64,000 nucleotides of DNA, taken from positions 111,436 through 175,435 of the forward strand of contig DYKG01000002.1 in NCBI GenBank assembly GCA_020722725.1. The letters run 5' to 3'. The DNA comes from Candidatus Methylomirabilis sp. (GTDB lineage Bacteria; Muiribacteriota; Ozemobacteria; Ozemobacterales; Ozemobacteraceae). Positions 29,657-45,681 of the stretch are shown here, piece after piece. Each line of letters opens with the position of its first letter. Position 1 is the first letter of the stretch. Both the position numbers and the translations under genes were made by a program. The notes beneath the pieces are model-generated. The model had not been told where the DNA came from, searched no databases, and saw only the letters and a list, made by a program, of their open reading frames with translations.

Positions 29657-29662
29657 ATCTCC

Positions 29663-30385
29663 ATGAGTCAAACCAGCGAAGTCCTAGAAAGACACGTATT
29701 CATCAGCAGCAGAAAAGAACGTGAGATTTATTTGAGCGTTTTCGAAAAGATTTTTGCTTTTCCAGTGGCGAACATTGCAGTGCAATTCGTTGACCAGCCA
29801 GACGAGCACTATTCAACCATCAATGACCGCACAAAAAAAATTCTGCTTAACATTGCCAAGCCTGAAAAAATCACCTGCATCAGCGGTCAATTCGAAGATG
29901 GTGGCAGCTTTACCCTGCAGAACGGGAATCTGCATGTGTTAGTTCTTGAAGACGAGTATAATTATGAATTGCTCGAATCTCTAAAAAACTTCCTCAATCC
30001 AATTTTCCCCCTATGGATATTCAGAAATCCTTATATCTGGGGGGTTACCATATTCGAGCCCTATGAAAGACAGCATTTTTTCGATGTAAGGAATTTTTCA
30101 GCCAGGTCGCGCCTGCTTGAAGAGCCGGAAGTGGATATTTTTCGCCGGGATGACGGAATCATTCACAAGTATAGATTTTTCACCCGAGCCGATATTGAAG
30201 CAGAAGAAGGAATGAAATTTCTTGAACCATTTTTCAAAGAAATGCTTGAAGGACTGAAAAAACGTAATTATGAAGGCCTGGAAGTTCTTCACACCTACTG
30301 CACCGACAAGATTGCATTCAGAAGATTAGACCCAAGAACCAAGCTTGGGAAAGATATAAAATCAGTTTTAAGCCCTGACAAATAA
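29663..30385 (+). CDS. Hypothetical protein
   Basis: 240-aa ORF tightly packed in the operon; no recognisable motif. Confidence 0.7.
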   Translation: MSQTSEVLERHVFISSRKEREIYLSVFEKIFAFPVANIAVQFVDQPDEHYSTINDRTKKILLNIAKPEKITCISGQFEDGGSFTLQNGNLHVLVLEDEYNYELLESLKNFLNPIFPLWIFRNPYIWGVTIFEPYERQHFFDVRNFSARSRLLEEPEVDIFRRDDGIIHKYRFFTRADIEAEEGMKFLEPFFKEMLEGLKKRNYEGLEVLHTYCTDKIAFRRLDPRTKLGKDIKSVLSPDK

Positions 30386-30394
30386 GGAGTTTTA

Positions 30395-31144
30395 ATGGCT
30401 GAAGAGACCGCGTATCGCGAATCGTTGCTTGATGAAGTTATCGATGCATGTATCAAGCAGCTAAAGACAAGGCCTAACGAACACGCGAAACTGTTTTTCC
30501 TCGGTAATGCCTTCTTTTTAAAAAATCAATTTGACAAGGCTTCTTTCTGTTACGTTAAAGCGGTCAACCTTAACCCCAAAAACCCGGTTTACTACCTTCA
30601 TCTTGGCCACGCTTATCGAGAACTGGGTGACCGTGATCAGGCGGTTGCTTCTTATGAATCGGTATTGACACTCAACCCACGATTTGCCGACGCACATTTC
30701 AACGTTGGCCTGATTTTTTTTGAAAACAAAGCTCTTGAAAAAGCCATCGCAAGCTTTTCCAATGCTCTGGCGATCAATCCGCGTTATGCCGCGGCCAGGT
30801 ATTATGTTGGTCGCATCTATGAAGAACAGGGTGTATTCAGCAAGGCGATGCAGGAATACAGGCATGTGGTAGAAGATACCATGGGACAAAAGCTGGAGAA
30901 AGGCAGTGTAACCATTGATTTTGGGGCGGTTTTTTCTGATCTGGGACTTCTTGACCAGGCAGAGCGCGAATATCGAAAACTGATCAGAGAACACCCTGAA
31001 TATGCTGACCTGCACTTCCATCTGGGCATAATTCTAAAGAAAAAAGGCAGGCCCGATGAGGCCATGGAAGAATTCAGAGTCGCAATTCAGCTTAACCCTC
31101 ATTACATGGATGCCCGGCGCAACTATTGGGAATCGGCGCAATAA
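30395..31144 (+). CDS. TPR protein
   Basis: AGGAG RBS; several TPRs (P.FADAHFNVGL, PEYADLHFHLG). Confidence 0.88.
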   Translation: MAEETAYRESLLDEVIDACIKQLKTRPNEHAKLFFLGNAFFLKNQFDKASFCYVKAVNLNPKNPVYYLHLGHAYRELGDRDQAVASYESVLTLNPRFADAHFNVGLIFFENKALEKAIASFSNALAINPRYAAARYYVGRIYEEQGVFSKAMQEYRHVVEDTMGQKLEKGSVTIDFGAVFSDLGLLDQAEREYRKLIREHPEYADLHFHLGIILKKKGRPDEAMEEFRVAIQLNPHYMDARRNYWESAQ

Positions 31145-31214: not shown

Positions 31215-32903
31215 ATGTTTAAGAGAAAAAAAATCGGACAACTGCTGATCGAAGCAGGCCATATTGGTGAAAAAGAGCTGAACATCGGTCTTGCCGAGCA
31301 GAAGAAGCGCGGCAAACGTATCGGTCAGGTTCTTATTGAGCTGGGCTATCTTTCTGAAGACAAGCTTTTGCCTATTCTGGGCAAACAGCTGAAGGTGCCA
31401 TTCGTAGATTTGAGCAAGGTCGAGATCAAACCTGAAGTTCTCAAGATGGTTCCAGAAAAGATCTGCCGCAAACACAATCTGGTGCCAATCAATTTTGACG
31501 GCAAGAGCCTCATGATCGGCATGGCCGACCCTCTCGACGTTTTCATCATCGATGAAATACAGTTTCAGAACAACTGTGAAGTTGTAAGGGCTATCTGCTC
31601 AGAAAATCAGATCGCAGACTGCACCGACAAGCTTTATGTTGCCGGTGCCATGGCCGACGCACTCAGCGCACTTACATCAGGCAACGGAGACGGAGCGACA
31701 GATGGCGGAGCCCTTGATGGCCTGAAAAAGGCTTCTGAAGAAACGCCGATAATCAAGCTGGTAAATCTGATTCTGACCTCAGCGGTGCAAAAAGGTGCAT
31801 CAGATATTCACATCGAACCGGATGAAGGCGAGCTGAGAGTGAGATTACGCATAGATGGCAACCTGATTATTACCATGAACCTGCAGCCAGAAGCGTTGCC
31901 CTCGGTCATGTCGAGAATCAAGATTCTCAGCGGCATGGATATTTCTGAGCGCCGACTGCCGCAAGATGGCCGTATCCAGATGATCATCATGGACAAGCCC
32001 ATCGATTTCCGTGTAAACACCATTCCAACAGCCTGGGGCGAAAAGGCCTGCCTGCGAATTCTTGACAAATCGAATGTTAACGTTCAACTCGAACAGATGG
32101 GTTTTTCCCCATTAAACTTCAATATGATTCAGAAGGCAATCAATTCGCCAAACGGCATGTGTCTGGTTACCGGGCCGACCGGGTCGGGGAAAACAACCAC
32201 GCTTTATTCATGCCTTAATGCGATTAAAGGACCTGACATCAACATCTGTACAGTTGAGAACCCGGTCGAATATAAGCTCAAATACATCAATCAGGTTCAG
32301 GTAAGGCCTGAAATCGAATTGAACTTTTCAACGGTTCTACGTGCCTTTCTACGCCAGGACCCGGATGTCATCATGTTGGGTGAGATCCGCGATGAAGAAA
32401 CTGCGAGTATTGCGGTAGAAGCGGCATTGACCGGCCATCTGGTTTTCGCCACCCTGCATACGAACGATGCGCCGAGCACGGCGATTCGTCTGGTAGATAT
32501 GGGGGTAGAGCCATTCCTGGTTTCTTCTGCACTTTTATGCATCGTTTCGCAACGTCTGGCCCGGCGTGTCTGCAAGTTCTGCAAAGACGTCGACACCAGC
32601 ATTACACCGGAAATTATTGCAGATCTGGGCCTTCCCCCGGAATGTATAAATGAAACATATTATCGCGGAAAAGGCTGTGACAAATGCGCCAAAACCGGCT
32701 ACAAAGGTCGCGTTGGGGTTCATGAGGTAATGTATACCCACGAGAACCTCAGACGCATGATCATTCAGAAAGTTGGGCCAGATGATCTCAAGAACGAAGC
32801 TTTGAGACTTGGCATGAAAAGCTTGAAGGATGATATTGTTGCAAAATTCCAGCAAGGATTGACAACCCCCGAAGAAGTATTTGCGCTGGCGCGTTCTGAT
32901 TGA
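31215..32903 (+). CDS. pilB: Type IV pilus / T2SS assembly ATPase (PilB/GspE)
   Basis: N-terminal MshEN-like KKIGQLLIEAG; ASDIHIEP; ERRLPQDGR; Walker A GPTGSGKTT; LRQDPDVIMLGEIRD; TGHLVFATLHTND; tetracysteine motif. Confidence 0.95.
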   Translation: MFKRKKIGQLLIEAGHIGEKELNIGLAEQKKRGKRIGQVLIELGYLSEDKLLPILGKQLKVPFVDLSKVEIKPEVLKMVPEKICRKHNLVPINFDGKSLMIGMADPLDVFIIDEIQFQNNCEVVRAICSENQIADCTDKLYVAGAMADALSALTSGNGDGATDGGALDGLKKASEETPIIKLVNLILTSAVQKGASDIHIEPDEGELRVRLRIDGNLIITMNLQPEALPSVMSRIKILSGMDISERRLPQDGRIQMIIMDKPIDFRVNTIPTAWGEKACLRILDKSNVNVQLEQMGFSPLNFNMIQKAINSPNGMCLVTGPTGSGKTTTLYSCLNAIKGPDINICTVENPVEYKLKYINQVQVRPEIELNFSTVLRAFLRQDPDVIMLGEIRDEETASIAVEAALTGHLVFATLHTNDAPSTAIRLVDMGVEPFLVSSALLCIVSQRLARRVCKFCKDVDTSITPEIIADLGLPPECINETYYRGKGCDKCAKTGYKGRVGVHEVMYTHENLRRMIIQKVGPDDLKNEALRLGMKSLKDDIVAKFQQGLTTPEEVFALARSD

Positions 32904-32926: not shown

Positions 32927-34126
32927 ATGCCAAAATACGATTGTGAAGTTAAAGATTCTAAAGGTGATATAATCAAAACCGCTCTTGAGGCCCCTAACCT
33001 TCAGGAACTGGCAAATCGTCTTTCAGACAAGGGCTACTACCTGGTAAAAGCCAAAGAGGTAAAAGAAGGCGGTGGCTTCAGTTTTGGCGGTAGCGTTTCG
33101 AAAAAAGAAATGATGGTATTTACGGTTCAGCTTGCCACTCTGGTAGGCGCTGCGATTCCATTGGTGGAAGCAATAGGAATTCTGGCAGATCAGACGCAGA
33201 ATCAGTATTTCAAAAACATCTTGAATTCTATTGGAAAAGATCTCAATTCGGGGCAATCTTTTTCAGTTTCGATCAGAAAATTTCCCAGGATTTTCGACAA
33301 AATTTATTGCAATATGTGTGAAGCCGGCGAAGCCGGCGGTATGCTCGACCAGGTTCTCAACCGCCTGGCAGCCTTTGCTGAAGCCGACGCAGAGATTCGC
33401 GGCAAGATCAAAGGCGCACTCACCATGCCGGTAATTCAGCTGGCTCTGGCGGTTCTGGGGGTTGTGTTTCTTCTGGTAAAAATCTTCCCGAACTTTTCTA
33501 CAATGTTTAAGAAAATGAAAGTTGAGCTGCCCCAAATTACACAGGTAATGATGTTCGCTTCTGACACTCTATTGAATAATTACGTTATGGTCGGCCTTGG
33601 AACTCTTGGTTCGATTATCGGCTTTTATTTCTTTATTAAAACACCAATTGGCAGTCGAATAATCGCAATTATTTCGCTTAAGGGACCAATTATCGGCCCA
33701 TTAACCCAAAAAATTGCGGTCAGCCGCTTTTCCAGAACATTCTGTTCGTTGCTTGGCGCAGGTGTTCCGATCATGCAGGCGCTACAGATTACTTCTTCGG
33801 TTATGGGTAACCCTTTGATGGAAGAAATGATTTCTCAAATGTCCATTGGGGTTCAACAGGGCAACACTCTTGCGAGCACACTGGTAAAGGTTGACATTTT
33901 CCCACCAATGGTTAAAAAGATGATTGAAGTCGGAGAAAACACCGGTAATCTGGATGTTATGTTGACAAAAGCCGCCGACTTTTACGACCGCGAAGTGAAA
34001 GAAGCCCTCGATGGCCTTACTTCGGCAATCACCCCGCTACTGACAGTGGCCATGGGTATGGTAATCGGCACCATCGCCTTATCTGTTTTTATGCCTCTGT
34101 TTAAAATGACTGAGAGCATGAAGTAA
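32927..34126 (+). CDS. pilC: Type IV pilus / T2SS platform protein (PilC/GspF)
   Basis: QLATLVGAAIPL, AGEAGGMLDQVL, GVPIMQAL and VGENTGNLD.ML motifs; three TM segments. Confidence 0.95.
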   Translation: MPKYDCEVKDSKGDIIKTALEAPNLQELANRLSDKGYYLVKAKEVKEGGGFSFGGSVSKKEMMVFTVQLATLVGAAIPLVEAIGILADQTQNQYFKNILNSIGKDLNSGQSFSVSIRKFPRIFDKIYCNMCEAGEAGGMLDQVLNRLAAFAEADAEIRGKIKGALTMPVIQLALAVLGVVFLLVKIFPNFSTMFKKMKVELPQITQVMMFASDTLLNNYVMVGLGTLGSIIGFYFFIKTPIGSRIIAIISLKGPIIGPLTQKIAVSRFSRTFCSLLGAGVPIMQALQITSSVMGNPLMEEMISQMSIGVQQGNTLASTLVKVDIFPPMVKKMIEVGENTGNLDVMLTKAADFYDREVKEALDGLTSAITPLLTVAMGMVIGTIALSVFMPLFKMTESMK

Positions 34127-34127
34127 T

Positions 34128-34724
34128 TTGTCAAGCTCAGATTTGGAGTATTTTGAGTATCAGCGAAACCGAGGTTTTTTTCGAACCTTAGTAAGAAGTT
34201 TTTATTTAAGAAGAATTGCAAGTTACTCAGTGGGTATGTCGATTGATTATGGCTGCGGTACGGGCGAGCTTTTGCGCTACTTACCAAAAAACTCAATAGG
34301 TCTTGAGGTAAATATCAAGACGGTTGAATATTGCGAAAAAGAAGGTTTTAAAGTTTTTAAAATAGCTAAAACACTACCTTCAGAGACCCTCAAACCATTC
34401 ATCGGCAAACCGTTTAAAACAATCATTTTCAATCATATTCTGGAGCATATTCCAAAACCGGAATTGTTTCTGAACAATTTATTTGGCTTTCTTTCAGGCA
34501 CTGATTTTTCCAGATTGATTGTGGTTTCACCGGGAAAAAGAGGATTTTTCTCGGACAAAACGCATGAAGTTTTCATTGATAAAAACTGGTTTAAAATAAA
34601 CAACTTTTATTCATATCCAAATGTGAAGACAGTTAAAAGCTATCATTTTCCAATAAACTTTTTAAGCGCAGGTAATTTTTTCACTCACAATGAGTGGCAT
34701 CTAATTCTTGATTTGAAGAAGTAA
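34128..34724 (+). CDS. Class I SAM-dependent methyltransferase
   Basis: IDYGCGTG motif I and HILEHI motif; TTG start right after the pilC stop. Confidence 0.82.
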   Translation: MSSSDLEYFEYQRNRGFFRTLVRSFYLRRIASYSVGMSIDYGCGTGELLRYLPKNSIGLEVNIKTVEYCEKEGFKVFKIAKTLPSETLKPFIGKPFKTIIFNHILEHIPKPELFLNNLFGFLSGTDFSRLIVVSPGKRGFFSDKTHEVFIDKNWFKINNFYSYPNVKTVKSYHFPINFLSAGNFFTHNEWHLILDLKK

Positions 34725-34730
34725 AATGGT

Positions 34731-35756
34731 ATGGAACCAATCGTTTCAATTATAATTTTGAACTGGAATGGCTTTCAACACCTTAACGAATGTTTAACCA
34801 GCCTGAAAAAACAAACATTTAAAAATTTTGAATGTATCATGGTTGATAATGGTTCAACTGATGGGTCTTTAGATTATCTTGAAAAGAACCACCAATGGCT
34901 AAAATTAATCAAGCTGGAAAAAAACATAGGATTTTCTGCTGGAAATAATGTTGGCCTGAAAAATTCCTTGGGAAAGTATATCGTCACCCTTAACAACGAC
35001 ACGGCAGTTGATTCTAACTGGCTGCGAGAATTGGTCAAGATAGCCGAAAAAAATCCAAAAGCAGGAATGTTTGCATCCAGAATATGTTCATACCATGATA
35101 AAGACACTATCGACTCGCTTGGGATGCAGATTTGCCTTGACGGCATGTCCAGAGGAGCATTTCGGGGCAAAAAATATTCTATGCTGAAGCACGTCCCGTT
35201 TAAAATTTTATTGCCATCCGCCTGCGCAGCTCTTTATAAGAGAGAAATGCTTGATCAGACTGGCTTCTTTGATGAGAGTTTTTTTGCCTATTGCGAAGAC
35301 ACGGATCTGGGTCTAAGAGGTATAAGATTTGGCTGGGAGTCAGTTTTAGCCAAGGATGCAATAGTATTCCACAAATATTCATCAACGGCCGGGTCCTTCT
35401 CCCCATTTAAAATTTATCTGGTCGAAAGGAATCACTTCTGGTGTTCTGCCAAGAATTTGCCATTAATTCTCCTGATTTTATTACCTTTAACGACACTTTT
35501 CCGATATATTTTTCAAGCAATAATTTTATTGGGTGGTCATGGATCAGGAAATGAATTTAAGCAAAGCGATGCCCGTATAAAATGTTTTTTAGCCTTCTCT
35601 AAAGGGGTTTTTCATGGTATTTTTTATTCTTGGAAGAAAATTCTTAAAAGATTCGGCTATCTAAACGCTTGGAAAATCAAAGATGCTGAAATGACAAAAA
35701 AAATAATACGGCATAGGTTATCTTTTCCTAAACTTCTAGATTGCCAAGAGAAATGA
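34731..35756 (+). CDS. GT2 family glycosyltransferase
   Basis: SIIILNWNG, VDNGSTDGS, GFSAGNN, LNND and FFAYCEDTDL motifs. Confidence 0.92.
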   Translation: MEPIVSIIILNWNGFQHLNECLTSLKKQTFKNFECIMVDNGSTDGSLDYLEKNHQWLKLIKLEKNIGFSAGNNVGLKNSLGKYIVTLNNDTAVDSNWLRELVKIAEKNPKAGMFASRICSYHDKDTIDSLGMQICLDGMSRGAFRGKKYSMLKHVPFKILLPSACAALYKREMLDQTGFFDESFFAYCEDTDLGLRGIRFGWESVLAKDAIVFHKYSSTAGSFSPFKIYLVERNHFWCSAKNLPLILLILLPLTTLFRYIFQAIILLGGHGSGNEFKQSDARIKCFLAFSKGVFHGIFYSWKKILKRFGYLNAWKIKDAEMTKKIIRHRLSFPKLLDCQEK

Positions 35757-36472
35757 AACAGACAAAATCAGTCCTTTTGTTGATACCGTGCTTTAACGAG
35801 GAGTTGTCAATAGCAAACCTCCTCGAAGAAATAAAGGCTGCCTGCCCTGGCTATCAGGCTGTGGTAATTAATGATGGATCGAAAGACCAAACTTCTGCAG
35901 TGGTAAAAACCAAAGAAAATACAATTCTTCTCGATCTGCCAGTCAATCTTGGAGTTGGAGGAGCGGTTCAAACCGGCTTCAAATTTGCAAGAATGGTCAA
36001 TGCAGAATATGCAGTAAAAATAGACGGTGATGGACAACACTCCCCGAATTTCATTCCTCAAATGATAGAAACGCTATCTGAAAGAAAATCTGACATTGTT
36101 ATCGGCAGCAGATTCTTGAATTCAACCGGGTTCAAATCGTCAACTATTAGACGTTTCGGCATTTACTTTCTACAAAAGCTTTGTCTTGTTCTCACCGGAC
36201 GAAATATTAGTGATCCAACATCGGGTTTTCGAGCATATAATCGAACAGCAATAGAGTTCCTCGCTGATCATTACCCGTCTTTTGATTACCCAGAACCTGA
36301 AGAAATAATCCTTGCCAGCAAAAATGGGCTGGAGTTAAACGAGATTCCGGTAGAAATGCGAGAACGCCAGAAAGGTTCTTCAACGATATCCTCATCGGGG
36401 TCTGTCTATTACATGTTGAAAGTGACTTTAAGCATGCTGTTTATATTCATACGTAACCGGGAAAAAAGATGA
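35753..36472 (+). CDS. GT2 DPM1/PpgS-like polyprenol-phosphate glycosyltransferase
   Basis: IPCFNEE, INDGSKDQT, NLGVGGAVQTG, DGDGQH, IGSRF, DPTSGFRA and REr..G.S motifs; start taken at ATG 35753. Confidence 0.88.
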   Translation: MKQTKSVLLLIPCFNEELSIANLLEEIKAACPGYQAVVINDGSKDQTSAVVKTKENTILLDLPVNLGVGGAVQTGFKFARMVNAEYAVKIDGDGQHSPNFIPQMIETLSERKSDIVIGSRFLNSTGFKSSTIRRFGIYFLQKLCLVLTGRNISDPTSGFRAYNRTAIEFLADHYPSFDYPEPEEIILASKNGLELNEIPVEMRERQKGSSTISSSGSVYYMLKVTLSMLFIFIRNREKR

Positions 36473-36544
36473 GGATGGTTAACTTTTTTCCGAAAGAACA
36501 ACGCAGTCGTCCTCAATTTTTTTTCGATTAGCCAGAGGTAACCC

Positions 36545-36898
36545 TTGATTAATTCACTTGATAGAATTCAAATCATCTCAATTTTCAGCAGTATTTTATT
36601 TTTGTTTTTCATTCTGGAATTAATAAGAAAAAAACAATTAAAAGAAGCTTATGCCCTGCTTTGGATTATCTTCAGTTTTATTTTTCTATTTTTTTCATGC
36701 TGGAAAACGGGCATGGATTATTTTGCGGCAAGAGTGGGCATCTATTATCCGCCAGCTTTTCTATTTTTGATTTTGATTGTGGCGATAATAGCAATCCTGG
36801 TGCAGTTTTCGGTTCTAGTGTCTCTTCAGGGGGAAAAGATCAGAATTTTGACCCAGGAAATAACTTTGCTAAAAACAAAACTTGAATCAAAGAAATAG
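36545..36898 (+). CDS. DUF2304 family membrane protein
   Basis: LIRKKQLKEAYALLW, GIYYPP and IRILTQEI.L pattern; adjacent to a DPM-like GT2. Confidence 0.85.
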   Translation: MINSLDRIQIISIFSSILFLFFILELIRKKQLKEAYALLWIIFSFIFLFFSCWKTGMDYFAARVGIYYPPAFLFLILIVAIIAILVQFSVLVSLQGEKIRILTQEITLLKTKLESKK

Positions 36899-36899
36899 A

Positions 36900-39116
36900 T
36901 TATTCCAGCTCTTTGACCAGCAAAATTTTCCCATTCAGAACGTCTTTTTCCGTTACCAGACATTTCCCTTTTCGCTCTTTTCCGGAGCTTTTCCAGGAAA
37001 GTTTATAAAAATCGTCGGTAACAACTCTGCCGCTATTAAATTGATTTGAGTATGGAACAGTAAATTCAAAACGACCATTTTCATCAGAAATGACCTCTCT
37101 TTTGTATAAAACCAAGGTTTTATCAAATTGGCATCCCAAAGACAAATCGACTTTGCTGTACGGATCTGCTGACCCGGAAATTTTGGCTCCTGCCACAAAT
37201 TCGTAAACCATAAATTCGGGACCAGTAAACCGGTCAATCTGACTGGCAGAATAAACCATTCTAAGTCTTGATGCGGGGGATTCGAATTTTCCAGTTTTTT
37301 TAATCGCGCAGCAATCTGCAAGCCATGAAAAAAAAGTGTTTTCAAATTTCTTTTCCATAAATTTACTCTCATCAAAATCCGGAAAAAAAGAGTAAAAATC
37401 ATCTGGAACGTTTGCTCGCTCTTTATAAGCATACTGGTATCTGACAATATTCTCGGGAATATTTCTCTGGTCTGCCAGAAGATACCTTACGGAGTATTTA
37501 TTCAAAAAAGAATAGACTTCACTTTCAGATTCAGAAGTTAGAATTTGCGCCATTTTCTTGTATCCGATAATTGTATTGTTAACAAGTGTTGGCCTTTGAC
37601 CATAGAAGTTAATCCGGTTTCCCTCACCCCAGTAGCAGAAAAAACAGTATTCAGGACGGTTTGAATCAATATAGCCGCCGGTAATCGGAGTTTGTGTTCT
37701 AATCCACTCGTAAAGTTCAACCTGGTCTTTTGAAAAATGAAATCCGCGAATGAAATATGGGAAATTCAAGAGAAAATTCGTTAATAGAAGTGGAATCAAC
37801 AAAACAGCAGCTCTAATGTTCAGTAAATTACGATTGGGATTGCGTGAGACTATGGCCGCAAAAATGGAATAAATCGCAACGCCGGCAGCAAAATTGACCC
37901 CAGCCCCGAACCAGCGAAAAAATCTCAGACTATAAACGCTGAGAGTTAAAAACAAAAGACACCAGTCGCGAATAATTCTGGCTTCTCCATCGAAAATGCC
38001 CCTGGGAGAGGAAGTTAAAAACACCGGCCATAGAAACAGCAGGAGTCCCAGATATTTCATTGCATTGATCAGCCATGCCGGATTGATAATACTGTCAATA
38101 CTCATCAGTGGCTTTAATTCTGAAATAGACTGCATCAGCAAATCATTTTTACCGAAGAAAGCAATCCCCTGAGTAATCTGCTCATTAAAAATAAAAAAGA
38201 TCATCACTGGCAAGGCCAGGATTAACGGAATGATCTTTTTAACAAAAGTTAGATCGAATGAACCGGGGGGGGGAAAAGCCAGGGTCAACCTGACACATAA
38301 TGCACCAAGAAGAATGATAGAAGGCTGAAACCAGCCAAAAGAAGCCATACTAAAGCTATTGTTCCCTGAAGAAATCAAAAAAAGAAAAACGAGAAAAGAA
38401 GCGATTACCATGGAAGAATAGGAGTACTGTGCGAATCTTTCAAAAAAAGAACTTTTACCAAGCCAGAGAAAGAAAACATAAAGGCAGACAAAACCGTAAA
38501 ACAATGGAGTCCCGGACCAGGTAAGGATAAATGAGGCAGAAACCAGAGCCCCGACAACCAGCAGGGCTTTTTTACCTGCTTCGCAGAATTTCCATGAGGA
38601 AAAAATCCACAGCCAGATGAAAAAATTATTAAGAAAGTGGTAATCCACTCTCATAAACCACGAATTCATACCCGCAACAGCTCCAGGCACCATACAAGCA
38701 GAAATGACCAAGGTTAAGCCCTGGCTCTTCGTCTTTTTCCAGGTAAACCAGGCAAAAACACAGCAAATAAGCCAGCCAATTAAAGGGGGCAAAGCACCAA
38801 CGATGTATTCAGGAGCAACTGCGCTTTCTGGAAAAAGGTAGAAGAAAAAAAGTGATAAATGAACCATCAAGGCCATGTGCAATGGCGGATAAATTATGGG
38901 CAGCCTGCCTGGAAAGCTGCTATATTCATCAAAAGCCGGCTTTTCTCCTCTCAGCAGCGTTTGTTCAAAAAGTCTGAGAAAAAGCAATGAATCTGGGTCT
39001 TCGACCTGAAATCTACCAGGATTTTGGTTCTGGAAAAAAAAACTTGAAAAATACAGGGCAAGGCATGATATTAGAACAATACAGGTCACTAATTTAAATC
39101 CAGCATTTCTTACCAT
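36900..39116 (-). CDS. STT3/AglB/PglB-like oligosaccharyltransferase with a divergent WWD motif
   Basis: EDPDS loop, YPP, DYH (DxD/DHH-like), SISE, multiple TM helices, YWGEG..I..YGQRP in place of WWDxG, and an AglB-like C-terminal beta domain (GAKISG...SDENGRFEFTVPYS). Confidence 0.82.
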   Translation of the reverse strand: MVRNAGFKLVTCIVLISCLALYFSSFFFQNQNPGRFQVEDPDSLLFLRLFEQTLLRGEKPAFDEYSSFPGRLPIIYPPLHMALMVHLSLFFFYLFPESAVAPEYIVGALPPLIGWLICCVFAWFTWKKTKSQGLTLVISACMVPGAVAGMNSWFMRVDYHFLNNFFIWLWIFSSWKFCEAGKKALLVVGALVSASFILTWSGTPLFYGFVCLYVFFLWLGKSSFFERFAQYSYSSMVIASFLVFLFLISSGNNSFSMASFGWFQPSIILLGALCVRLTLAFPPPGSFDLTFVKKIIPLILALPVMIFFIFNEQITQGIAFFGKNDLLMQSISELKPLMSIDSIINPAWLINAMKYLGLLLFLWPVFLTSSPRGIFDGEARIIRDWCLLFLTLSVYSLRFFRWFGAGVNFAAGVAIYSIFAAIVSRNPNRNLLNIRAAVLLIPLLLTNFLLNFPYFIRGFHFSKDQVELYEWIRTQTPITGGYIDSNRPEYCFFCYWGEGNRINFYGQRPTLVNNTIIGYKKMAQILTSESESEVYSFLNKYSVRYLLADQRNIPENIVRYQYAYKERANVPDDFYSFFPDFDESKFMEKKFENTFFSWLADCCAIKKTGKFESPASRLRMVYSASQIDRFTGPEFMVYEFVAGAKISGSADPYSKVDLSLGCQFDKTLVLYKREVISDENGRFEFTVPYSNQFNSGRVVTDDFYKLSWKSSGKERKGKCLVTEKDVLNGKILLVKELE

Positions 39117-39194
39117 CGTGAGGACTCCTGATTAACTTCCAGGAAAAAATATAGCATATGGGCAGGAAATTAAAGAAATTTATTAATTTCAAAC

Positions 39195-39223
39195 TTGACA
39201 CTGCCGATAAGGGTACCTATATT
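39195..39223 (+). promoter_or_regulatory. Near-consensus sigma-70 promoter for the pilin gene
   Basis: TTGACA-17 bp-TATATT; GGAGG RBS at 39244 before ATG 39257. Confidence 0.7.
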
Positions 39224-39256
39224 GCCCATGCGACAATAAACATGGAGGGAAAACTT

Positions 39257-39826
39257 ATGATTAATCGCAAACAAGGCTTTACCTTGATGGAGATAATGGT
39301 AGTTATTATCGTTATCGCCGTTCTGGCTTCGGTGGCAGGCCCAATGATTGGCTCTATTACAGACCAGGGTCGCACGTCTGCGACCAAGTCAAAAATGAGT
39401 TCTTTGAAAAGCGCAATGCTGGCTTACAAATCGGATGTTGGGCGCATCCCATTTTCTGGCTTGGCAGAATGCGTTGGTTGTGCGGCTGCTTACAACGATG
39501 CATGGAACAATTATCTTGCCGATAATGAGGCAAATAATGTTCTAGTTAACGAAGATGTTGGCTGTACAACTGAGTTTTGTATTACTAACTATGGCCGCAA
39601 ATGGAAGGGGCCTTATATGGACTCTTCGCCCGAAGACTTTATGATGGATTCCTGGGGAGTCAAAATCGAATATTTTGCTCATATTAACACGAAGTCCGTC
39701 TATCTGAGATCCGCTGGGCCAGACATGGCCTATGAAGCAACAGATATTGACTCTGTTGTTAAAGGCAATGATGAAGGAATCGATGACTTTGCCCAGTCAA
39801 TAATTAAATTGAGAAAATTAAACTAA
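39257..39826 (+). CDS. GspG-like major pseudopilin / type IV pilin
   Basis: RKQG|FTLMEIMVV prepilin motif; GspG-type WKGPY...DSWG...Y...LRSAGPD C-terminus; four cysteines. Confidence 0.88.
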   Translation: MINRKQGFTLMEIMVVIIVIAVLASVAGPMIGSITDQGRTSATKSKMSSLKSAMLAYKSDVGRIPFSGLAECVGCAAAYNDAWNNYLADNEANNVLVNEDVGCTTEFCITNYGRKWKGPYMDSSPEDFMMDSWGVKIEYFAHINTKSVYLRSAGPDMAYEATDIDSVVKGNDEGIDDFAQSIIKLRKLN

Positions 39827-39924: not shown

Positions 39925-41787
39925 ATGCCTGATCAGCAAGCCTTTCAAAGTTTTGTTGCCATAGATATTGGCAGCTTCTCAATGAAATTCGCCTATGTAG
40001 AAAAAGGTGAAGATGGCGAATTTCTGCTCAAAACCCTTGCCCAAATGCCAATACCGCCTTATGAGCAGGAAATTCCCGATGAAAAGCGCGAAACGATGAG
40101 CAAAGACGATGTGCGGGAGCACTGCCTGAAGGAGTTGCGACAGTTTCTGACCACACATCTCACCGAGCTTTTGTATGATAACGAGATTCAGACCAAAAGG
40201 GCGATTTCATTTGCTTCTAACCGCGAGGTAACCATAAGATGCATTGAAATTCCTCCAGTTCCGGAAAAAGAAAAGTTATTGGAAGCGGTTACGGCTGAGG
40301 CGAACAAGCAGATGCCATTTTCAATGGGCAATGCGGTACTGGGTTATCACGTTCAGGGCGATGTAATAAAAGAAGAGAAAGCCCTGACTCAGATAATGGT
40401 AGCAGCTTTACAAAAAGATATAATCGATTATGTCAACCTTAATTTGAGGGGCGGCGGCCTGTCAAATGAAGGAATTCTGACTCTTCCCCAGGCAATAGAG
40501 TTGGCTCTGAAGAAGCAGCTTGAGCCATATTCGCAAAACGACAAGAAAGTGGCCATCATTCACTGCGGAAATTCTACGACTTCAATTCTTATTTACAAGA
40601 ACGGCAAGATTCAATTTTCTCGCGATATCAACATGGCCGGGGCAACAATCACAGCCGCAATCTATGCCGGTGGCGAATTTGAAGGGCAACAGATCAAATT
40701 CAAACACCCTGGCGAAGCAACCGAATTAAAGCATAAACTTGGAGTAATGCCGCCCGAGGAAATGAAAGATTTGAAGGGTGTAGAGAAATTCGCTGCTACC
40801 AAAATATTTGAAACGGTTGAAAAGATTTTTCAGCATATTCAGCTATCAATCAGCTTTTATATTTCACAAACCGGTGAAACTGCAGTAGATAAGATAATTT
40901 TAACCGGTGGTTCAGCAGGCATGACGAATTTCAAGGAATTCATCGAAGAAAGTCTTGAAGTTCCGACAGTTCTGGCGGATCCATTTGGTTCAATGAAAAT
41001 CGGAGAAATAAAATACGATAATGAGAAACGTTTGATTGATTCCCCGAGCCTTGCCCCGATTCTGGGAGTTGCAATGTATCAGGGAGAGCCGGATATAATC
41101 AACTTTATCGATATCCTTTTCCCAAACCGCAAAAGCCAGAATTTGAATCTTTCAGGCGTAGGCTCAAAATTCGGCGGGAATATTTCCGCGAAATTATTCC
41201 AGCTTGATGAGACAAAACTTAGAATCCTGGCGATTCTGCTCGCCATTCTGATTATTGCTATCGGTTTAATTCCGGTAGTCAACATCAGAAACAAGGTTGC
41301 CGAAGCAAAAGCAAATGATTTAAAAATGAGAAAGAAGCTCCAGCAGCTGCAGTCATCGCAAAAAGAGGTAACTCAATTACTGGCAGAGCAGGAATCAATG
41401 AAAAAATACTCAACAGTCTATTCTGCTTTAAAGGGAAATCTTTGCAACAACTCTTTAATTATAATTGAGATCGCGAGTCTAACGCCGAAGGAAATCTTTC
41501 TTACCGCAGCAGATTTCAATTTCAATCAGTCGCCCGCGTCATTCAAGTTAATGGGTCACGCCGATAATTCCGACAGCATTTTCGAGTATCTAAACATTAT
41601 CGGAAAATCCAGCGTTTTTTCCAATCCAATTCTTGATAAAACTCAAGAAGTGCCTATTGACGAGACCAGGTATTTCCTGCGGTTCGAGTTGAGCGGCAAG
41701 ATAAAAGACAGCGCAATAAAATTCATCGATAAGTCTGCCGAAGCCGACAACAATGTAATGCAGGAAGAAATTACTGAGGAGCCATAA
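39925..41787 (+). CDS. pilM: PilM-PilN fusion alignment protein
   Basis: Actin-like IDIGSFSMK, FSRDINMAG and IILTGGSA motifs; then INFI linker, TM, coiled coil and a PilN-type periplasmic domain (P.EIFLT..L.G.A). Confidence 0.85.
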   Translation: MPDQQAFQSFVAIDIGSFSMKFAYVEKGEDGEFLLKTLAQMPIPPYEQEIPDEKRETMSKDDVREHCLKELRQFLTTHLTELLYDNEIQTKRAISFASNREVTIRCIEIPPVPEKEKLLEAVTAEANKQMPFSMGNAVLGYHVQGDVIKEEKALTQIMVAALQKDIIDYVNLNLRGGGLSNEGILTLPQAIELALKKQLEPYSQNDKKVAIIHCGNSTTSILIYKNGKIQFSRDINMAGATITAAIYAGGEFEGQQIKFKHPGEATELKHKLGVMPPEEMKDLKGVEKFAATKIFETVEKIFQHIQLSISFYISQTGETAVDKIILTGGSAGMTNFKEFIEESLEVPTVLADPFGSMKIGEIKYDNEKRLIDSPSLAPILGVAMYQGEPDIINFIDILFPNRKSQNLNLSGVGSKFGGNISAKLFQLDETKLRILAILLAILIIAIGLIPVVNIRNKVAEAKANDLKMRKKLQQLQSSQKEVTQLLAEQESMKKYSTVYSALKGNLCNNSLIIIEIASLTPKEIFLTAADFNFNQSPASFKLMGHADNSDSIFEYLNIIGKSSVFSNPILDKTQEVPIDETRYFLRFELSGKIKDSAIKFIDKSAEADNNVMQEEITEEP

Positions 41788-42410
41788 TGGCAGACGAAGC
41801 TTTACTAACTAACTGGCTGGCAAAAGCCAAAGAAGATCCGAAAAACGCGGCGCCGCCTGTTGTTATAATTCTGGCGCTTTTTTTCGGTGGTTATAAAGCG
41901 TTGTATGCGCCGAACACTGCAATTCTGCTAAAACAAGATAAGGCTACCAAAGGGATCGAAGCGCAAATTAAAAAGCTTGAAAGTGCTGTTGAAAATCTTG
42001 AAGATATCAAGCTGGAAATTGAAGAAAAAAAAGCTCAATGGAAAAAGACCCAGCAGCTTTGCTACCGGAAATCTGAGATTACCAGGTTTTTACGTCGGGT
42101 AAGAGAGCTTGCCACCCTGGCGGGAATTCCGGTTAAGAGTGTTAATCCTCAGCAGATTTCCCCACTTCCGCTTGGTGAACTGGCTTTCGAGAAGCTTCCT
42201 GTTTCCATTTATTTCACCGGCGATCTGGTAACCTTGGGCATTTTTTTAAGATTAATTGAGAAAGAAGAAAAGATTACCTTTCTTAATCTACCAAGTCTGG
42301 TTCCCAATGCCAGCGGCACTTTTGAACTCGAACTGGTTCCGACAACGATACTAATTCCTGATGAGCTGGTAATTGAGGATAAGCCTGCTGAAACGGATGA
42401 AAAGCCATGA
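41787..42410 (+). CDS. pilO: PilO family protein
   Basis: TM, coiled coil, EITRFL.....LA...GI.V.SVNP and LPVSI.F.G....LG.FL; position after pilMN. Confidence 0.8.
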   Translation: MADEALLTNWLAKAKEDPKNAAPPVVIILALFFGGYKALYAPNTAILLKQDKATKGIEAQIKKLESAVENLEDIKLEIEEKKAQWKKTQQLCYRKSEITRFLRRVRELATLAGIPVKSVNPQQISPLPLGELAFEKLPVSIYFTGDLVTLGIFLRLIEKEEKITFLNLPSLVPNASGTFELELVPTTILIPDELVIEDKPAETDEKP

Positions 42411-43150
42411 AGGGAAAACATATTTTCTGCTTCAGTCTGATCATTCTTTCAGTCGTGATGGGGCTGCACTGGTTCAAAAACAAGCCCAAACCAAAGAAAA
42501 AAGTTTCTGATCGCCCACGAGTGGCCTTGAACCTTGATGATATGCAGATTCAAGATGATGATCCCAACGGGAAAAAGCCGGCACAGAACCCGGAGAACCC
42601 GGATGAAACAAAAGAAGATCCTGAAAACGGCACCCCCAAAGATCCCAAGAACCCTGATGCAACTTCGAACGAAGGCCCGGAAAATCCACCAGATCCGCCA
42701 GAAGTTGCAAATGCTTCAGATACTCAACCGGTTTCTGAGACAGCATCTGGAACCGGTGATCTTCGGCCGGAGCTTAATGACCCGGTAATTATGGCGGTTA
42801 AAGCCATTCCGAGAAACCCCTTCGAGCCTTCGCCCTATGCCAGGCTGGTTGAAAAATTGCGTGAGCTCGAAGAAAAGCCAGACAAAGAAGAAGTTAAAAA
42901 GATCACAGAATTAATCAAAGCCAATTTCACCGCAACCATTAAAACCCGAAAAGAGCTGGTTGCCGTTATAGATTCTCGACTTTATCGAAAGGGCGACCTT
43001 TTTCAGAATCGGAAGATAACTGAAATTGGAGCTGAACTGGTTTCACTCGATACGGAATCCAAGCTTTTCCTGATTCCAAAAGTCGGGGTAGAAGTTTCAA
43101 TCGCCTCTGACGGAACCTACACTTTCGAGGATTCATATAGAAAAAACTGA
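42407..43150 (+). CDS. PilP/GspC-like protein
   Basis: TM, Pro/Asp/Glu-rich linker, RNPFEP motif and AVID..LY..GD..KI.EI small beta domain; position in the operon. Confidence 0.6.
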   Translation: MKGKHIFCFSLIILSVVMGLHWFKNKPKPKKKVSDRPRVALNLDDMQIQDDDPNGKKPAQNPENPDETKEDPENGTPKDPKNPDATSNEGPENPPDPPEVANASDTQPVSETASGTGDLRPELNDPVIMAVKAIPRNPFEPSPYARLVEKLRELEEKPDKEEVKKITELIKANFTATIKTRKELVAVIDSRLYRKGDLFQNRKITEIGAELVSLDTESKLFLIPKVGVEVSIASDGTYTFEDSYRKN

Positions 43151-43186
43151 TCAGCCATCATTTTTAGTCTTTTTTTTTCCGATAGC

Positions 43187-43678
43187 TTGAATATGCAACG
43201 CTATCAAAAATTCATTTTTTTTCTATTCTGCCTGCCAGCCATTGTGCTGCTCAACGGCTGCATCGACAAAACGATCAGACCTGAAGCCGCCATCGAGATT
43301 TCAACTGTAACCCCCTATGAGCTGACTACAACTGCAACTGATACGGCAAGCCTTCCGACAACGGCCATTACGGTAAATTCAATCAACACCGTTCCCTGTA
43401 ATTTAAAAAGTTATTCGGTGACCTATTTCAGCAGATTCGGTGAGATTATTCCGAGTTTAAGCATTCCTTCCACACCAATCGATTTGAAGCTTGCTGCAGC
43501 AGGAACAATCGACGTTACGGTCAGGCCCTACACCAGCCGGGTGGTGGATATGTTTGAGCTTTCAAATTCAGACATTTCGCCGATTCAGGCAAAAATAAAT
43601 CTGGTTTTTGAAGATTATAACAGCAACATTATTAACAAAGAGGCTCATTGTCTGATTTATAAGCCCAACAACACCTGA
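43187..43678 (+). CDS. Lipoprotein upstream of the secretin (pilotin candidate)
   Basis: Lipobox LLNGC; beta-rich; the start may be ATG 43193. Confidence 0.65.
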   Translation: MNMQRYQKFIFFLFCLPAIVLLNGCIDKTIRPEAAIEISTVTPYELTTTATDTASLPTTAITVNSINTVPCNLKSYSVTYFSRFGEIIPSLSIPSTPIDLKLAAAGTIDVTVRPYTSRVVDMFELSNSDISPIQAKINLVFEDYNSNIINKEAHCLIYKPNNT

Positions 43679-43728
43679 TGGTTAATAATTTTTGATGTCG
43701 AGCCGATACGGGGGCAAAGATTAATCTG

Positions 43729-45681
43729 ATGGAGCAAACCTATCTAATGTTGCACAATCCGGAAACACTACAAAAATGCTGTTTGGCAGCTGTTTTGCTC
43801 TTCAGCATGAATACCATTCCGGTCAATGCGCAGTCGAGAAGTGCCATCAGGGGTGCAATAAGCCATCCTGCAAAGGTTAGTCCGAGCACTTCATTTTATC
43901 CGGTTGTGAGAAATAATCATCCTGCGCCAATGGCTGCCGCTGCCCGTCCGGGCTGGACAGAAATGGGAAATGGTGCAAGAATAAGATTTTCAGAAAAAAA
44001 CTTTGCAAAAGAAAGCGGTCTTTCACCTGATGTTCTTGAAACCTTAAAAAGCCTGCAGGTTCAGGCGCCCAAGCCAGCCTACCAACTGGCGCCAGCCACG
44101 ACTTCGATAACCGGAGCAGTTTCCCAATCGCTTCAGGGCCCTGATGATGACGCACCGCCAGAACAGAGAGAAATCGGGGTTCTTGAATCAAAAATCACTT
44201 TTCCGCCGGAAAAGAATATTCGTATTCAGGATCTGGATTTCAGAAACACTACGGTTCAGGATGCCCTGAGATCGCTTGCTCAGTTGATTGAAGTAAACCT
44301 GATGCTTTCGCCGGCAATTTCGGGTAACGTTACGATTCTTTTCAGTGACGTTACCCTGGAAGAAGCCTTCAATACTCTGCTCACCAGCTACGATTTATCG
44401 TTTGCCTGGGAAGGTACAATTTTAAGAATTTTTCCAAAGGCTCAAGCACCGCTGATTACCAAGATTTTTCCAATACAGCATACCAATGCGACCGAAATAA
44501 AAACGATTGTAGATCGCATGCTGACGCCTCAACGGGGCACTTCTGAAATAGATGCACGCACCAACTCGCTGATGGTTACCGACACGGCAACCAAGCTGGC
44601 AGAAGTGAAAAGTTTGCTGCCTCAGCTCGACGTTCAGGAATCTACCGTTGACATCAGCTCTCGTCCGCTTACCGAGGTTTTCTACCTGAACTATGCAGAT
44701 GCCACCAGTCTTAGAACCCCGATTACCATGCTTTCAACCGGGGTTCAAATTCAGGAATTTTCATCAAGTTCAGCATCGCAGGCCGGGGCCGCCGGTGGCG
44801 GGGCAACGGCAGGTCGAATGGATATGATGATCATAACTGATACGCAGAATAATTTGCAGCGAATAAGAGAATTGATCGAGAAGCTTGATATTCCGCCAAT
44901 CCAGGTTACAATCGATGCTCATATTTATGAAATCGACAAGAATGAAGAAGAAAGACTGGGCATCAACTGGCAGAAGGCGATTCCAGTTCCTGGCACAACC
45001 AACAATCTTTTTGAAATGACTATCGCTCCTGAAGATGCCAACGCCGGGGGAACCGGGGTTTTCAGATTCGGCAGCCTCGATATAAATCAGTTCACCGCTC
45101 TGCTTGCAATGTTGAAAACCCACAGTTTCGCCAAGGTCTTGAGTAATCCGGTAATCACGACGTTGAACAACCGACAGGCCAACATTACGGTAGGTCAGTC
45201 GATTCCTTATGTTTCGGCCTCTCAGGTTAATGCTCAAACGGGGCAGGTTACCAATACGATTGCTCAGGCAAACGCCAACATTGCATTGGTGGTTACCCCT
45301 TCGGTTACCGGGAATGATGAAGTTTTTCTCGACATTCAGCCAACGATTTCCAGCGTTCTTGGCTTCACTGAGCTGGGAGGCAACTCTACGCCTAACCTCA
45401 GCACCCGCAGTGCGGTAACTCAAGTAATCTGCAAAAACAATCATACCATCGTAATCGGCGGTATGATCAAGACAGACAAAAGCAATACGATAAGCAAGGT
45501 TCCTTTTCTAGGTGATTTGCCCGGCATCGGAAAATTCTTTCAGAAAAAGACCCAGCGTGAAGTTAGAACTGAGCTGATTATTTTTATTACACCCCACATC
45601 GTTAACAAATATGCAAATCGCGACCGGGTTGCCGACCAGAATGTCGAATTTGGCATGCCCAGACTAACTTTACAGCCCTGA
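43729..45681 (+). CDS. pilQ: Secretin (PilQ/GspD family)
   Basis: LDFRNTTVQDALR N0 domain, DARTNSLMVTD N3 domain, QV.IDA.I.E, LGINW, VLSNP..TLNN..A.I.VG and KVPFLGDLPGIG.FF...TELIIFITP motifs. Confidence 0.93.
   Translation: MEQTYLMLHNPETLQKCCLAAVLLFSMNTIPVNAQSRSAIRGAISHPAKVSPSTSFYPVVRNNHPAPMAAAARPGWTEMGNGARIRFSEKNFAKESGLSPDVLETLKSLQVQAPKPAYQLAPATTSITGAVSQSLQGPDDDAPPEQREIGVLESKITFPPEKNIRIQDLDFRNTTVQDALRSLAQLIEVNLMLSPAISGNVTILFSDVTLEEAFNTLLTSYDLSFAWEGTILRIFPKAQAPLITKIFPIQHTNATEIKTIVDRMLTPQRGTSEIDARTNSLMVTDTATKLAEVKSLLPQLDVQESTVDISSRPLTEVFYLNYADATSLRTPITMLSTGVQIQEFSSSSASQAGAAGGGATAGRMDMMIITDTQNNLQRIRELIEKLDIPPIQVTIDAHIYEIDKNEEERLGINWQKAIPVPGTTNNLFEMTIAPEDANAGGTGVFRFGSLDINQFTALLAMLKTHSFAKVLSNPVITTLNNRQANITVGQSIPYVSASQVNAQTGQVTNTIAQANANIALVVTPSVTGNDEVFLDIQPTISSVLGFTELGGNSTPNLSTRSAVTQVICKNNHTIVIGGMIKTDKSNTISKVPFLGDLPGIGKFFQKKTQREVRTELIIFITPHIVNKYANRDRVADQNVEFGMPRLTLQP

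Follow-up and report, generated by a model that had tools for sequence, protein, structure and literature searches.

Between pilC and pilM of a type IVa pilus operon, a group of glycan genes is followed by an oligosaccharyltransferase-like gene and a pilin gene, which raises the question whether this block builds a glycan for the neighbouring pilin, and with what kind of enzyme. The operon lies in a stretch of 64,000 nucleotides (hereafter the window; Candidatus Methylomirabilis sp., GCA_020722725.1, contig DYKG01000002.1, 111,436-175,435; all coordinates below are window positions), and its host is a Riflebacteria-type (Rifleibacteriota/Ozemobacter-like) uncultured bacterium. A first-pass annotation had placed six genes in the interval, namely a methyltransferase, two family 2 glycosyltransferases (GT2), a DUF2304 protein, an oligosaccharyltransferase on the opposite strand and the pilin, and all six were located there by open reading frame (ORF) listing and by Pfam and NCBIfam profile scans (Table 1). 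We consider it probable that the variable block inserted into the operon, between pilC and the pilin promoter, is a hypervariable, recombination-exchanged pilin glycosylation island that uses an enzyme of the archaeal AglB type, and, judged from sequence, the pilus is most likely decorated with a strain-specific sugar coat.

The transferase is assigned, on its profile matches and predicted fold, to the STT3/AglB family and to the archaeal type within it, and not to the PglL/TfpO (Wzy_C) enzymes, a distinction that had been drawn at the outset and which the searches uphold. It scores above the cut-off of Pfam AglB_L1 (40.0 bits, cut-off 23.6), just below that of an AglB_core-like profile (26.5 bits, cut-off 27) and, over residues 26-553, matches the NCBIfam profile TIGR04154 (archaeo_STT3) with 116 bits (E 1.6e-33, cut-off 450), while the Pfam scan found no Wzy_C or O-antigen ligase match among 17 proteins at 28-48 kb. 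A sequence search of the PDB gave matches confined to the C-terminal domains of Archaeoglobus fulgidus AglB-S1 and AglB-S2. An AlphaFold model built from nine homologues (pLDDT 73, pTM 0.72) predicts helices, approximate in number, up to about residue 456, followed by a mixed alpha/beta domain. The best PDB fold match of this model is Archaeoglobus AfAglB-L (7e9s, E 5e-23, TM 0.70), followed by eukaryotic STT3 and then by the C-mannosyltransferase DPY19; PglB reaches only E 1e-8 and TM 0.45-0.48, and the ArnT, PMT and Emb types, and GacL with them, stand far down the ranking. The Atlas structure search, run with the Atlas's own model of the enzyme, gave TM 0.88 to a Methanobacteriota AglB cluster, and the nearest Atlas clusters by features are AglB_L1-bearing enzymes labelled mostly as Myxococcota, Acidobacteriota and Methanobacteriota. 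Bacterial STT3 homologues are described as falling inside the euryarchaeal clade, with at least two transfers to bacteria (PMC4973528).

With motif definitions taken from PMC8342417, the first DXD motif of external loop 1 is found as D40-P-D42 (EDPDS), D42 being invariant in 29 pilus-linked homologues. D158, within RVDYHF, is invariant too and may correspond to the second DXD motif (external loop 2), although it reads D-Y-H and not D-X-D. The TIXE/SVSE position of external loop 5 is occupied by S-I-S-E333, with [ST]I[SAT]E in most relatives and E333 invariant in the 29, and it is this Glu that contacts the acceptor peptide and the Asn according to PMC8342417. K-M522-A-Q-I525 fits the MxxI form of the MI motif, with an equivalence by position only, and M522 is invariant in the nine-sequence alignment but not in the 29-sequence list, which comprises D42, R48, Q52, D63, D158, E333, R401, W496, G499 and N500. 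As the 29 homologues share only 24-45% identity with the window enzyme, this invariance suggests that the pilus-linked enzymes are working and under constraint. The 738-codon frame of the window enzyme is intact, and so are all four glycan genes.

The second GT2 (GT2b) and the DUF2304 protein had been read as a pair that makes a polyprenol-phosphate sugar donor, and the matches bear this out. GT2b has PpgS (97 bits) and AglJ (88 bits) as its best NCBIfam matches, both far under the equivalog cut-offs, and its best PDB relatives are the Pyrococcus furiosus Dol-P-Man synthase (5mlz), ArnC and GtrB, which are all polyprenyl-monophosphate glycosyltransferases. The DUF2304 gene follows directly after a gap of 72 bp, and at least 17 of 32 mapped pilus-linked loci contain such a pair. 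These sequence relationships support a synthase of the polyprenyl-phosphate-sugar kind, with the DUF2304 protein as a GacJ/Rv3632-like activator partner; GacI and the DUF2304 protein GacJ are described as making GlcNAc-P-undecaprenol for the GT-C enzyme GacL, and Rv3632 as stimulating PpgS (10.1101/180810). Euryarchaeota use monophosphate-type donors for AglB (PMC8342417), and the AglJ/DPM1-like initiating GT2 would imply a monophosphate-linked donor here as well. The first GT2, which has weak sub-cut-off NCBIfam matches to many GT2 families, AglG included, probably extends the lipid-linked sugar, and the methyltransferase, a homologue of which (48% identity) is found in the L005/L044 cassette (loci are given L numbers), is probably a glycan O-methyltransferase.

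The enzyme is narrowly distributed and closely tied to a pilin gene. A word-indexed protein search retrieved the query and eight homologues, of which one carries the name Candidatus Riflebacteria, and an exhaustive profile search gave 2463 proteins at E <= 0.001, in which scores exceed 370 bits for about 50 cluster representatives and then drop to about 200 bits; the named genome contigs with the same locus belong to Rifleibacteriota/Ozemobacter metagenome-assembled genomes. Within the phylum it occurs in 37 of 87 genomes and in one family only (36 of 50, plus the window genome), and was absent from 36 genomes of ten other families, many of the genomes being incomplete. It is the only STT3-like gene of the window genome, and some relatives carry two to five copies. 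In 28 of the 30 best-match loci, window included, the 1.5-kb flank contains a prepilin with the same GFTLMEIMVV start (of the other two, L029 ends at a contig end), and adjacent enzyme-pilin pairs (gap below 400 bp) are arranged on opposite strands, start to start, in 30 of 31 cases. When metagenomes were searched with a pilin alignment, 80 loci were obtained, of which 24 full-length relatives (L083-L106) were analysed; 16 of these have at least 1 kb upstream and the enzyme is present in 13, some of the contigs possibly deriving from the same populations as the genomes. No relative was retrieved from the metagenomes with the enzyme alignment. Genome G017 has a second, different pilus-type locus (L069:6709-18178, contig C1) with a prepilin peptidase, a 114-aa prepilin and two tandem enzymes head-to-head with the prepilin. 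Also encoded there are a sulfatase-family protein of 928 aa and an ATPase of the PilB-like kind, which has 47% identity to the window PilB. At L039, L042 and L079, two tandem, divergent pilin genes adjoin the enzyme.

In composition the block differs from its surroundings, as had been claimed by comparison with pilB and pilC. Its GC content is 38.4% without the pilin (34128-39116; z = -3.6, with 0.09% of 3139 equal-sized genome stretches as low) and 38.8% with it (34128-39826; z = -3.5, 0.16% of equal-sized stretches), against 46.7% for the genome, 46.7% for pilB-pilC and 44.6% for pilMN-pilQ. The comparison among relatives covers the 18 loci with a cassette bounded by PilC or PilB, two of which are without a cassette gene; in 15 of the 16 complete cassettes GC is below that of the core pilus genes, the mean difference being 5.0 points, and the enzyme gene is lower in all 16.

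The proposal that the block is exchangeable was followed up by comparing the pilC-pilM interval across relatives, and differing gene content, sharp breakpoints and conflicting trees within genera all speak for it. Gene maps of the 47 larger loci have a fixed frame, in which PilB and PilC precede a variable block with the enzyme and the pilin after it, and PilMN, PilO, a pair of unnamed genes and PilQ follow. Across 29 enzyme-pilin pairs (L038 with a short pilin, L036 with a truncated one, L057 and L061 with the pilin more than 400 bp away and L058 at a contig end were left out), mean pairwise identity falls from 0.87 for PilB, 0.76 for PilC, 0.61 for PilQ and 0.58 for PilMN through 0.55 for DUF2304, 0.54 for the whole pilin, 0.50 for GT2b and 0.41 for the globular part of the pilin to 0.31 for the enzyme, the lowest value. 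Within the window genus, identity to the window is 89-98% for PilB and 83-96% for PilC, and 37-44% for the enzyme. The window carries a methyltransferase, GT2, GT2b and DUF2304. L005 has this gene set together with a GDPD-like and a sulfatase-family gene, and L001/L002 combine GT2, GT2b and DUF2304 with a different methyltransferase, a B12-radical SAM enzyme and a tandem pair of AglB-like enzymes. The cassette of L003 encodes a pair of radical SAM enzymes, an unnamed protein of 463 aa and a membrane protein of the sulfatase family. Further genes found in cassettes of the family encode SPASM proteins, Asn-synthase-like amidotransferases, RmlA/RmlC, UDP-galactopyranose mutase (Glf), GT4, PMT_2, a YfhO-like GT-C and amine oxidase (89 of 115 listed proteins were scanned, short ORFs and those scanned before being left out).

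Two kinds of cassette gene recur. B12-binding radical SAM genes are the commonest extra genes, with up to two or three per block and sometimes an Asn-synthase-like amidotransferase (for example L001:17343-18776, L040:6034-8863 and L061:11257-14085), which suggests unusual C-methylated or amidated sugars. Many cassettes have, directly beside the enzyme, a sulfatase-family membrane protein of about 600 aa (LtaS/EptA-like), frequently accompanied by an unnamed protein of 460-480 aa (L003:3077-6261, L005:8765-11990, L042, L046, L048, L052, L054, L059); the sulfatase-family protein may add a phospho-substituent to the glycan or the pilin.

The breakpoints can be placed closely. Between the window and its nearest relative, L037, the 80% nucleotide identity over pilB-pilC ends at 34127, one base past the pilC stop, homology is patchy in the block and it resumes at 39180 in the enzyme-pilin spacer. 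L040 and L063 have an enzyme and cassette without detectable nucleotide homology, followed by 83% identity from the spacer on, and in L055 versus L056 the globular part of the pilin is replaced as well, leaving a 180-nt island of homology at the conserved 5' end of the pilin gene. Within genera the enzyme tree conflicts with the PilQ+PilMN tree: in approximately unbiased (AU) tests the enzyme data reject the pairs (L040,L063) with p 3e-5 and (L055,L056) with p 1e-4, and the core data reject the enzyme-tree pairs (L062,L063) with p 2.5e-6 and (L053,L055) with p 2e-5. Path lengths, summed by hand, are roughly 2 to 19 times longer in the enzyme tree than in the core tree. The expected co-phylogeny of pilin and enzyme was found in part. 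The divergence of the enzyme and that of the pilin globular part are correlated beyond that of the core, although only moderately (partial Mantel r 0.31-0.33, p 0.002-0.003, in a test that overstates significance for related sequences). Exceptions are L040/L063 (PilQ 0.90, pilin 0.78, enzyme 0.31) and L065/L067 (PilQ 0.91, pilin 0.83, enzyme 0.26), in which the enzyme is replaced and the pilin kept; exchange thus seems to couple the enzyme more closely to the glycan genes than to the pilin.

The presumed acceptor is the prepilin next to the enzyme, which is probably the major pilin. Its ORF is listed from 39158, and ATG 39257 was taken as the start since it is preceded by GGAGGG and a promoter-like site (TTGACA-17-TATATT, the best of the region) and opens a textbook leader, MINRKQG (7 aa) before FTLMEIMVV, which agrees with class III signals and matches N_methyl and TIGR02532. 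In the predicted structure (pLDDT 83.8), an N-terminal helix of 52 residues is combined with a small sheet, and the PDB matches are pilins and pseudopilins. Among the 29 relatives the first 50 mature residues are near-invariant. Conserved Asn residues include mature N73; Asn 87 (N-V-L) is found in 27 of the 29 enzyme-adjacent pilins and an Asn at mature position 104 (I-T-N-Y-x) in 18, of which 8 have S/T at +2, and the model places the hypervariable stretch and N104 in a long coil after the N-terminal helix, a region that is usually exposed in pilus structures.

The earlier claim that the glycan is attached to the cognate pilin holds up as far as neighbourhood goes, enzyme and pilin being side by side nearly everywhere, and it falters at the acceptor site; this and several other observations weigh against the island reading. 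The mature window pilin has no N-X-S/T, as have 7 of the 29 enzyme-adjacent pilins (22 have at least one), and the 39 sequons of the 29 pilins are no enrichment over shuffles (45.2 +/- 5.9) or the reversed motif (34). Elsewhere in the genome there are about 55 further prepilin-like ORFs, and 1-5 sequons are present in many of them, so that the adjacent pilin is perhaps not the sole or main target. In the enzyme, the WWDYG motif of A. fulgidus AglB-S aligns with YWGEG, which departs from it and has Gly in place of the Asp that binds the +2 Ser/Thr; the counterpart in relatives is [YF]WD[EQKRDL]GN, with the second Trp kept, the Asp mostly kept and Tyr or Phe for the first Trp. The AglB_core and NCBIfam scores lie below cut-off, and PF02516 (STT3) was not matched at E <= 0.01 in the Pfam scan. 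Neither a Wzx- or GtrA-type flippase nor sugar-nucleotide genes were seen in the window block. Other paralogues, with the motif YWD.GH, adjoin MurJ, TPR or large surface proteins away from pilins, hence the enzyme family is not exclusively pilin-linked. As to exchange, the AU-tested pairs were picked after the trees had been seen, part of the enzyme divergence may be fast evolution in place, and the tree of 44 enzymes (L036, L070, L071, L081, L082 and one sequence below 600 aa were left out) has 12 genus label changes versus a minimum of 9 and a shuffled mean of 28.6. The tree thus mostly follows genus, which argues for exchange that is local and not promiscuous between genera and for lineage-specific duplications; rampant inter-genus transfer was rejected on this ground.

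A paralogue clade in one genus (g14; L074-L078) has a near-canonical YWD[FYLH]GH and lies beside MurJ or beside TPR/DUF4175 proteins of 419, 795 and 1142 aa, and may represent a general glycosylation enzyme. A motif scan of the 3.6-Mb genome gave 58 ORFs with a prepilin-type leader and a hydrophobic helix, a few of them probably false, which leaves the number of about 55 given above; they lie partly in tandem arrays and form an unusually large repertoire, with examples at C39:59880-67534, C61:195507-196680 and C64:42716-44109. Covariation of the WWD Asp with a sequon at the conserved Asn (mature 104) was considered and rejected, as L003 and L004 have WD together with N-Y-R.

As an alternative, the block could be a general N-glycosylation system parked in the pilus operon, with many periplasmic or surface targets, the numerous other pilin-like proteins among them, of which the adjacent pilin is one or none. 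The sole STT3-like gene of a genome could serve in this way, the sequons of the genome's prepilin-like ORFs lie in the others and not in the adjacent one, and adjacent pilins are not enriched in sequons; a housekeeping enzyme, however, is not expected to be the fastest-diverging gene of its operon (0.31 mean identity) or to be swapped with a glycan block at fixed breakpoints, and the head-to-head arrangement with the pilin in 30 of 31 adjacent pairs, repeated at the second pilus-type locus, also argues against this explanation, which we regard as unlikely. The sequon-free pilin, taken together with the Gly, might instead indicate a decaying or idle copy in the window lineage, whose enzyme has lost the WWD Asp, whose pilin has lost its sequons and whose pilus is unmodified. 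Among the 26 pilus-linked enzymes (out of 29) for which the motif could be called, the window enzyme alone has Gly at this position and that of L060 has Ser, and the two enzymes without the Asp both adjoin sequon-free pilins; a second Gly form is found in the database homologue P0008. Yet five Asp-bearing enzymes adjoin sequon-free pilins too, so that the missing sequon is not tied to the Gly change, and with the 738-codon frame, every catalytic residue and the four glycan genes all preserved, an idle copy is quite improbable.

A third possibility starts from the donor genes. Where DUF2304-GT2 pairs have been characterised, the GT-C enzymes that they supply act on polysaccharides (10.1101/180810), and the window enzyme, with its degenerate Ser/Thr pocket motif and a neighbouring pilin without a sequon, could be the last member of a three-component system that adds a single polyprenyl-P-sugar to a non-protein acceptor such as lipopolysaccharide or capsule. 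Its best relatives in fold and sequence are protein N-oligosaccharyltransferases, however, with ArnT, GacL and Emb types far lower; the TIXE/SVSE Glu, a contact of acceptor peptide and Asn (PMC8342417), is invariant, and the constant neighbour is a pilin and not a set of polysaccharide genes, which makes this explanation very improbable. Returning to the pilin glycosylation island, we infer from the kept Asp/Glu pair that the chemistry would be Asn-linked, with the adjacent pilin as its candidate target. N-glycosylation of the pilin is plausible on these grounds, and would be non-canonical in the window genome if real.

The island may operate as follows. At the cytoplasmic face, the PpgS/AglJ/GacI-like GT2b, aided by the DUF2304 protein, would load a sugar onto polyprenyl monophosphate, after which the first GT2 would extend and the methyltransferase methylate the lipid-linked sugar. 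The lipid-linked glycan would then be flipped to the periplasm, where the AglB-like enzyme is proposed to transfer it to the pilin made from the adjoining divergent promoter, probably to an Asn of the exposed alpha-beta loop. Homologous recombination, anchored in pilC on one side and in the pilin promoter or the conserved 5' end of the pilin gene on the other, would replace the enzyme and the glycan genes, so that related species would display different pilus surfaces. Glycosylation of pili has been described to block pilus-specific phages (10.1101/150227, 10.1101/2020.04.19.049825, PMC9829042), and by analogy the benefit may be escape from pilus-binding phages.

Table 1. Features of the pilus operon and its variable block, in window positions.
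Feature	Position	Strand	Evidence or remark
PilB assembly ATPase	31215..32903	+	T2SSE 433 bits, MshEN; left flank, 89-98% identity in five relatives
PilC platform protein	32927..34126	+	T2SSF 191 bits; stop codon is the left edge of the variable block
Class I SAM-dependent methyltransferase	34128..34724	+	Methyltransf_23/11/MetW-like matches; 34.3% GC
GT2 glycosyltransferase with hydrophobic C-terminal stretch	34731..35756	+	Glycos_transf_2 95.7 bits
GT2b, candidate polyprenyl-phosphate GT2 (PpgS/AglJ/GacI/DPM1-like)	35741..36472	+	NCBIfam and PDB relatives
DUF2304 small membrane protein	36545..36898	+	PF10066, 84 bits
AglB-like STT3-family enzyme, 738 aa, about 13 predicted membrane helices, then periplasmic domain	36900..39116	-	Profiles and fold
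Divergent enzyme-pilin spacer	39117..39256		Promoter-like site 39195-39223 and ribosome-binding site; right edge of the variable block
Type IV prepilin	39257..39826	+	N_methyl, T2SSG and GspG-like matches
PilM-PilN fusion	39925..41787	+	PilM_2 103 bits and PilN; right flank, 72-81% identity in relatives
PilO, two conserved unnamed genes, PilQ secretin	41787..45681 (PilQ 43729-45681)	+	PilO, Secretin and Secretin_N matches; synteny

On the plus strand the operon runs from a PP2C phosphatase, an unnamed gene and a TPR protein through PilB, PilC, the block, PilM-PilN, PilO, two unnamed genes and PilQ to a HEAT-repeat protein. PilM and PilN form one 620-aa protein, fused likewise in relatives, which matches an Amuc_1101-family PilM-like profile with 115 bits, under the cut-off. 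The SpoIIE/PP2C phosphatase, the unnamed 240-aa protein and the TPR protein upstream (28178-31144) and the 809-aa HEAT-repeat protein downstream (45763-48192) keep their synteny with the pilus operon across many relatives; they may have a regulatory or accessory function.

In published work, the glycosylation of bacterial pilins by TfpO, PglL, TfpM and TfpW is described as O-linked, and to our knowledge it is known only in this form, with TfpW or enzymes of the PglL/TfpO/TfpM type as the transferases. N-glycosylation in bacteria is known chiefly from the PglB system, which is general and conserved. In the window, an AglB-type enzyme and an archaeal-style initiating transferase are wired to a pilin gene, in a locus that behaves like an O-antigen locus. 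A literature search covering openly accessible papers, with subscription-only ones outside its scope, turned up neither a bacterial pilin associated with an STT3/AglB-type enzyme nor any account of pili in Riflebacteria. If the pilin is modified, bacterial type IV pili would be added to the targets of N-linked glycosylation, the divergent STT3 series (24-45% identity to the window enzyme), paired with different glycans, would be useful for the study of donor and acceptor specificity, and uncultured environmental phyla, too, would be among the bacteria that diversify their pilus glycans, perhaps under pressure from phages or predators. A stronger version, in which an archaeal-type AglB pathway serves one family of Riflebacteria as a pilin-dedicated N-glycosylation island and the YWGEG enzyme of the window acts independently of sequons on an Asn of its sequon-free pilin, is a long shot; if true, the island would provide the first N-glycosylated bacterial type IV pili, and the window pair a sequon-independent STT3 with a new acceptor rule.

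Among known systems, that of the archaeal AglB enzymes (A. fulgidus AglB-L; PDB 7E9S, 3WAK, 5GMY) is closest in the enzyme itself, which shares with them its best fold match, the AglB_L1 peripheral domain, a DXD-type Asp in external loop 1, the TIXE/SVSE Glu and an MxxI-like motif. The euryarchaeal Agl pathway comprises an AglJ-type Dol-P hexosyltransferase, further GT2s, a methyltransferase and AglB. Archaeal AglB is reported to modify type IV pilins as well, and the window enzyme is linked to a pilin gene. In contrast to the archaeal systems, the window belongs to a diderm bacterium that has a PilQ secretin, and the enzyme gene is embedded in the pilus operon, adjacent to the pilin gene. The WWDYG motif is degenerate, as [YF]WD.GN in the family and YWGEG in the window, the TIGR04154 score is 116 against a cut-off of 450, and the locus is hypervariable and has a DUF2304 partner, which is a bacterial trait. 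With PglB of Campylobacter the enzyme has in common that it is a bacterial STT3-family member with an MI-type motif (equivalent by position only in the window), but the fold match to PglB is much weaker than that to AglB. The Campylobacter pgl system uses a diphosphate-linked heptasaccharide and the sequon D/E-X-N-X-S/T; unlike the window island, it is a conserved general system that is neither pilin-linked nor hypervariable.

In organisation, the island resembles the TfpO/PilO and TfpW systems of Pseudomonas, PglL of Neisseria and TfpM of Moraxellaceae, in which a dedicated transferase gene likewise stands beside the pilin gene, pilin and accessory genes form allele groups and glycans differ between strains; TfpW is, moreover, a GT-C enzyme fed by a polyprenyl-P sugar. 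However, these enzymes are either Wzy_C/O-antigen-ligase-like or an unrelated GT-C, all of them linking to Ser/Thr through oxygen, whereas the window enzyme is of the STT3 family, retains the residues predicted to activate Asn and has no Wzy_C protein in its block. The donor side is most like GacI/GacJ/GacL of Streptococcus and PpgS/Rv3632/Rv3779 of Mycobacterium, in which a GT2 and a DUF2304 protein are likewise found next to a GT-C enzyme, with a polyprenyl-monophosphate donor; these systems differ in that their GT-C enzymes, which are not STT3-like, act on cell-wall polysaccharides.

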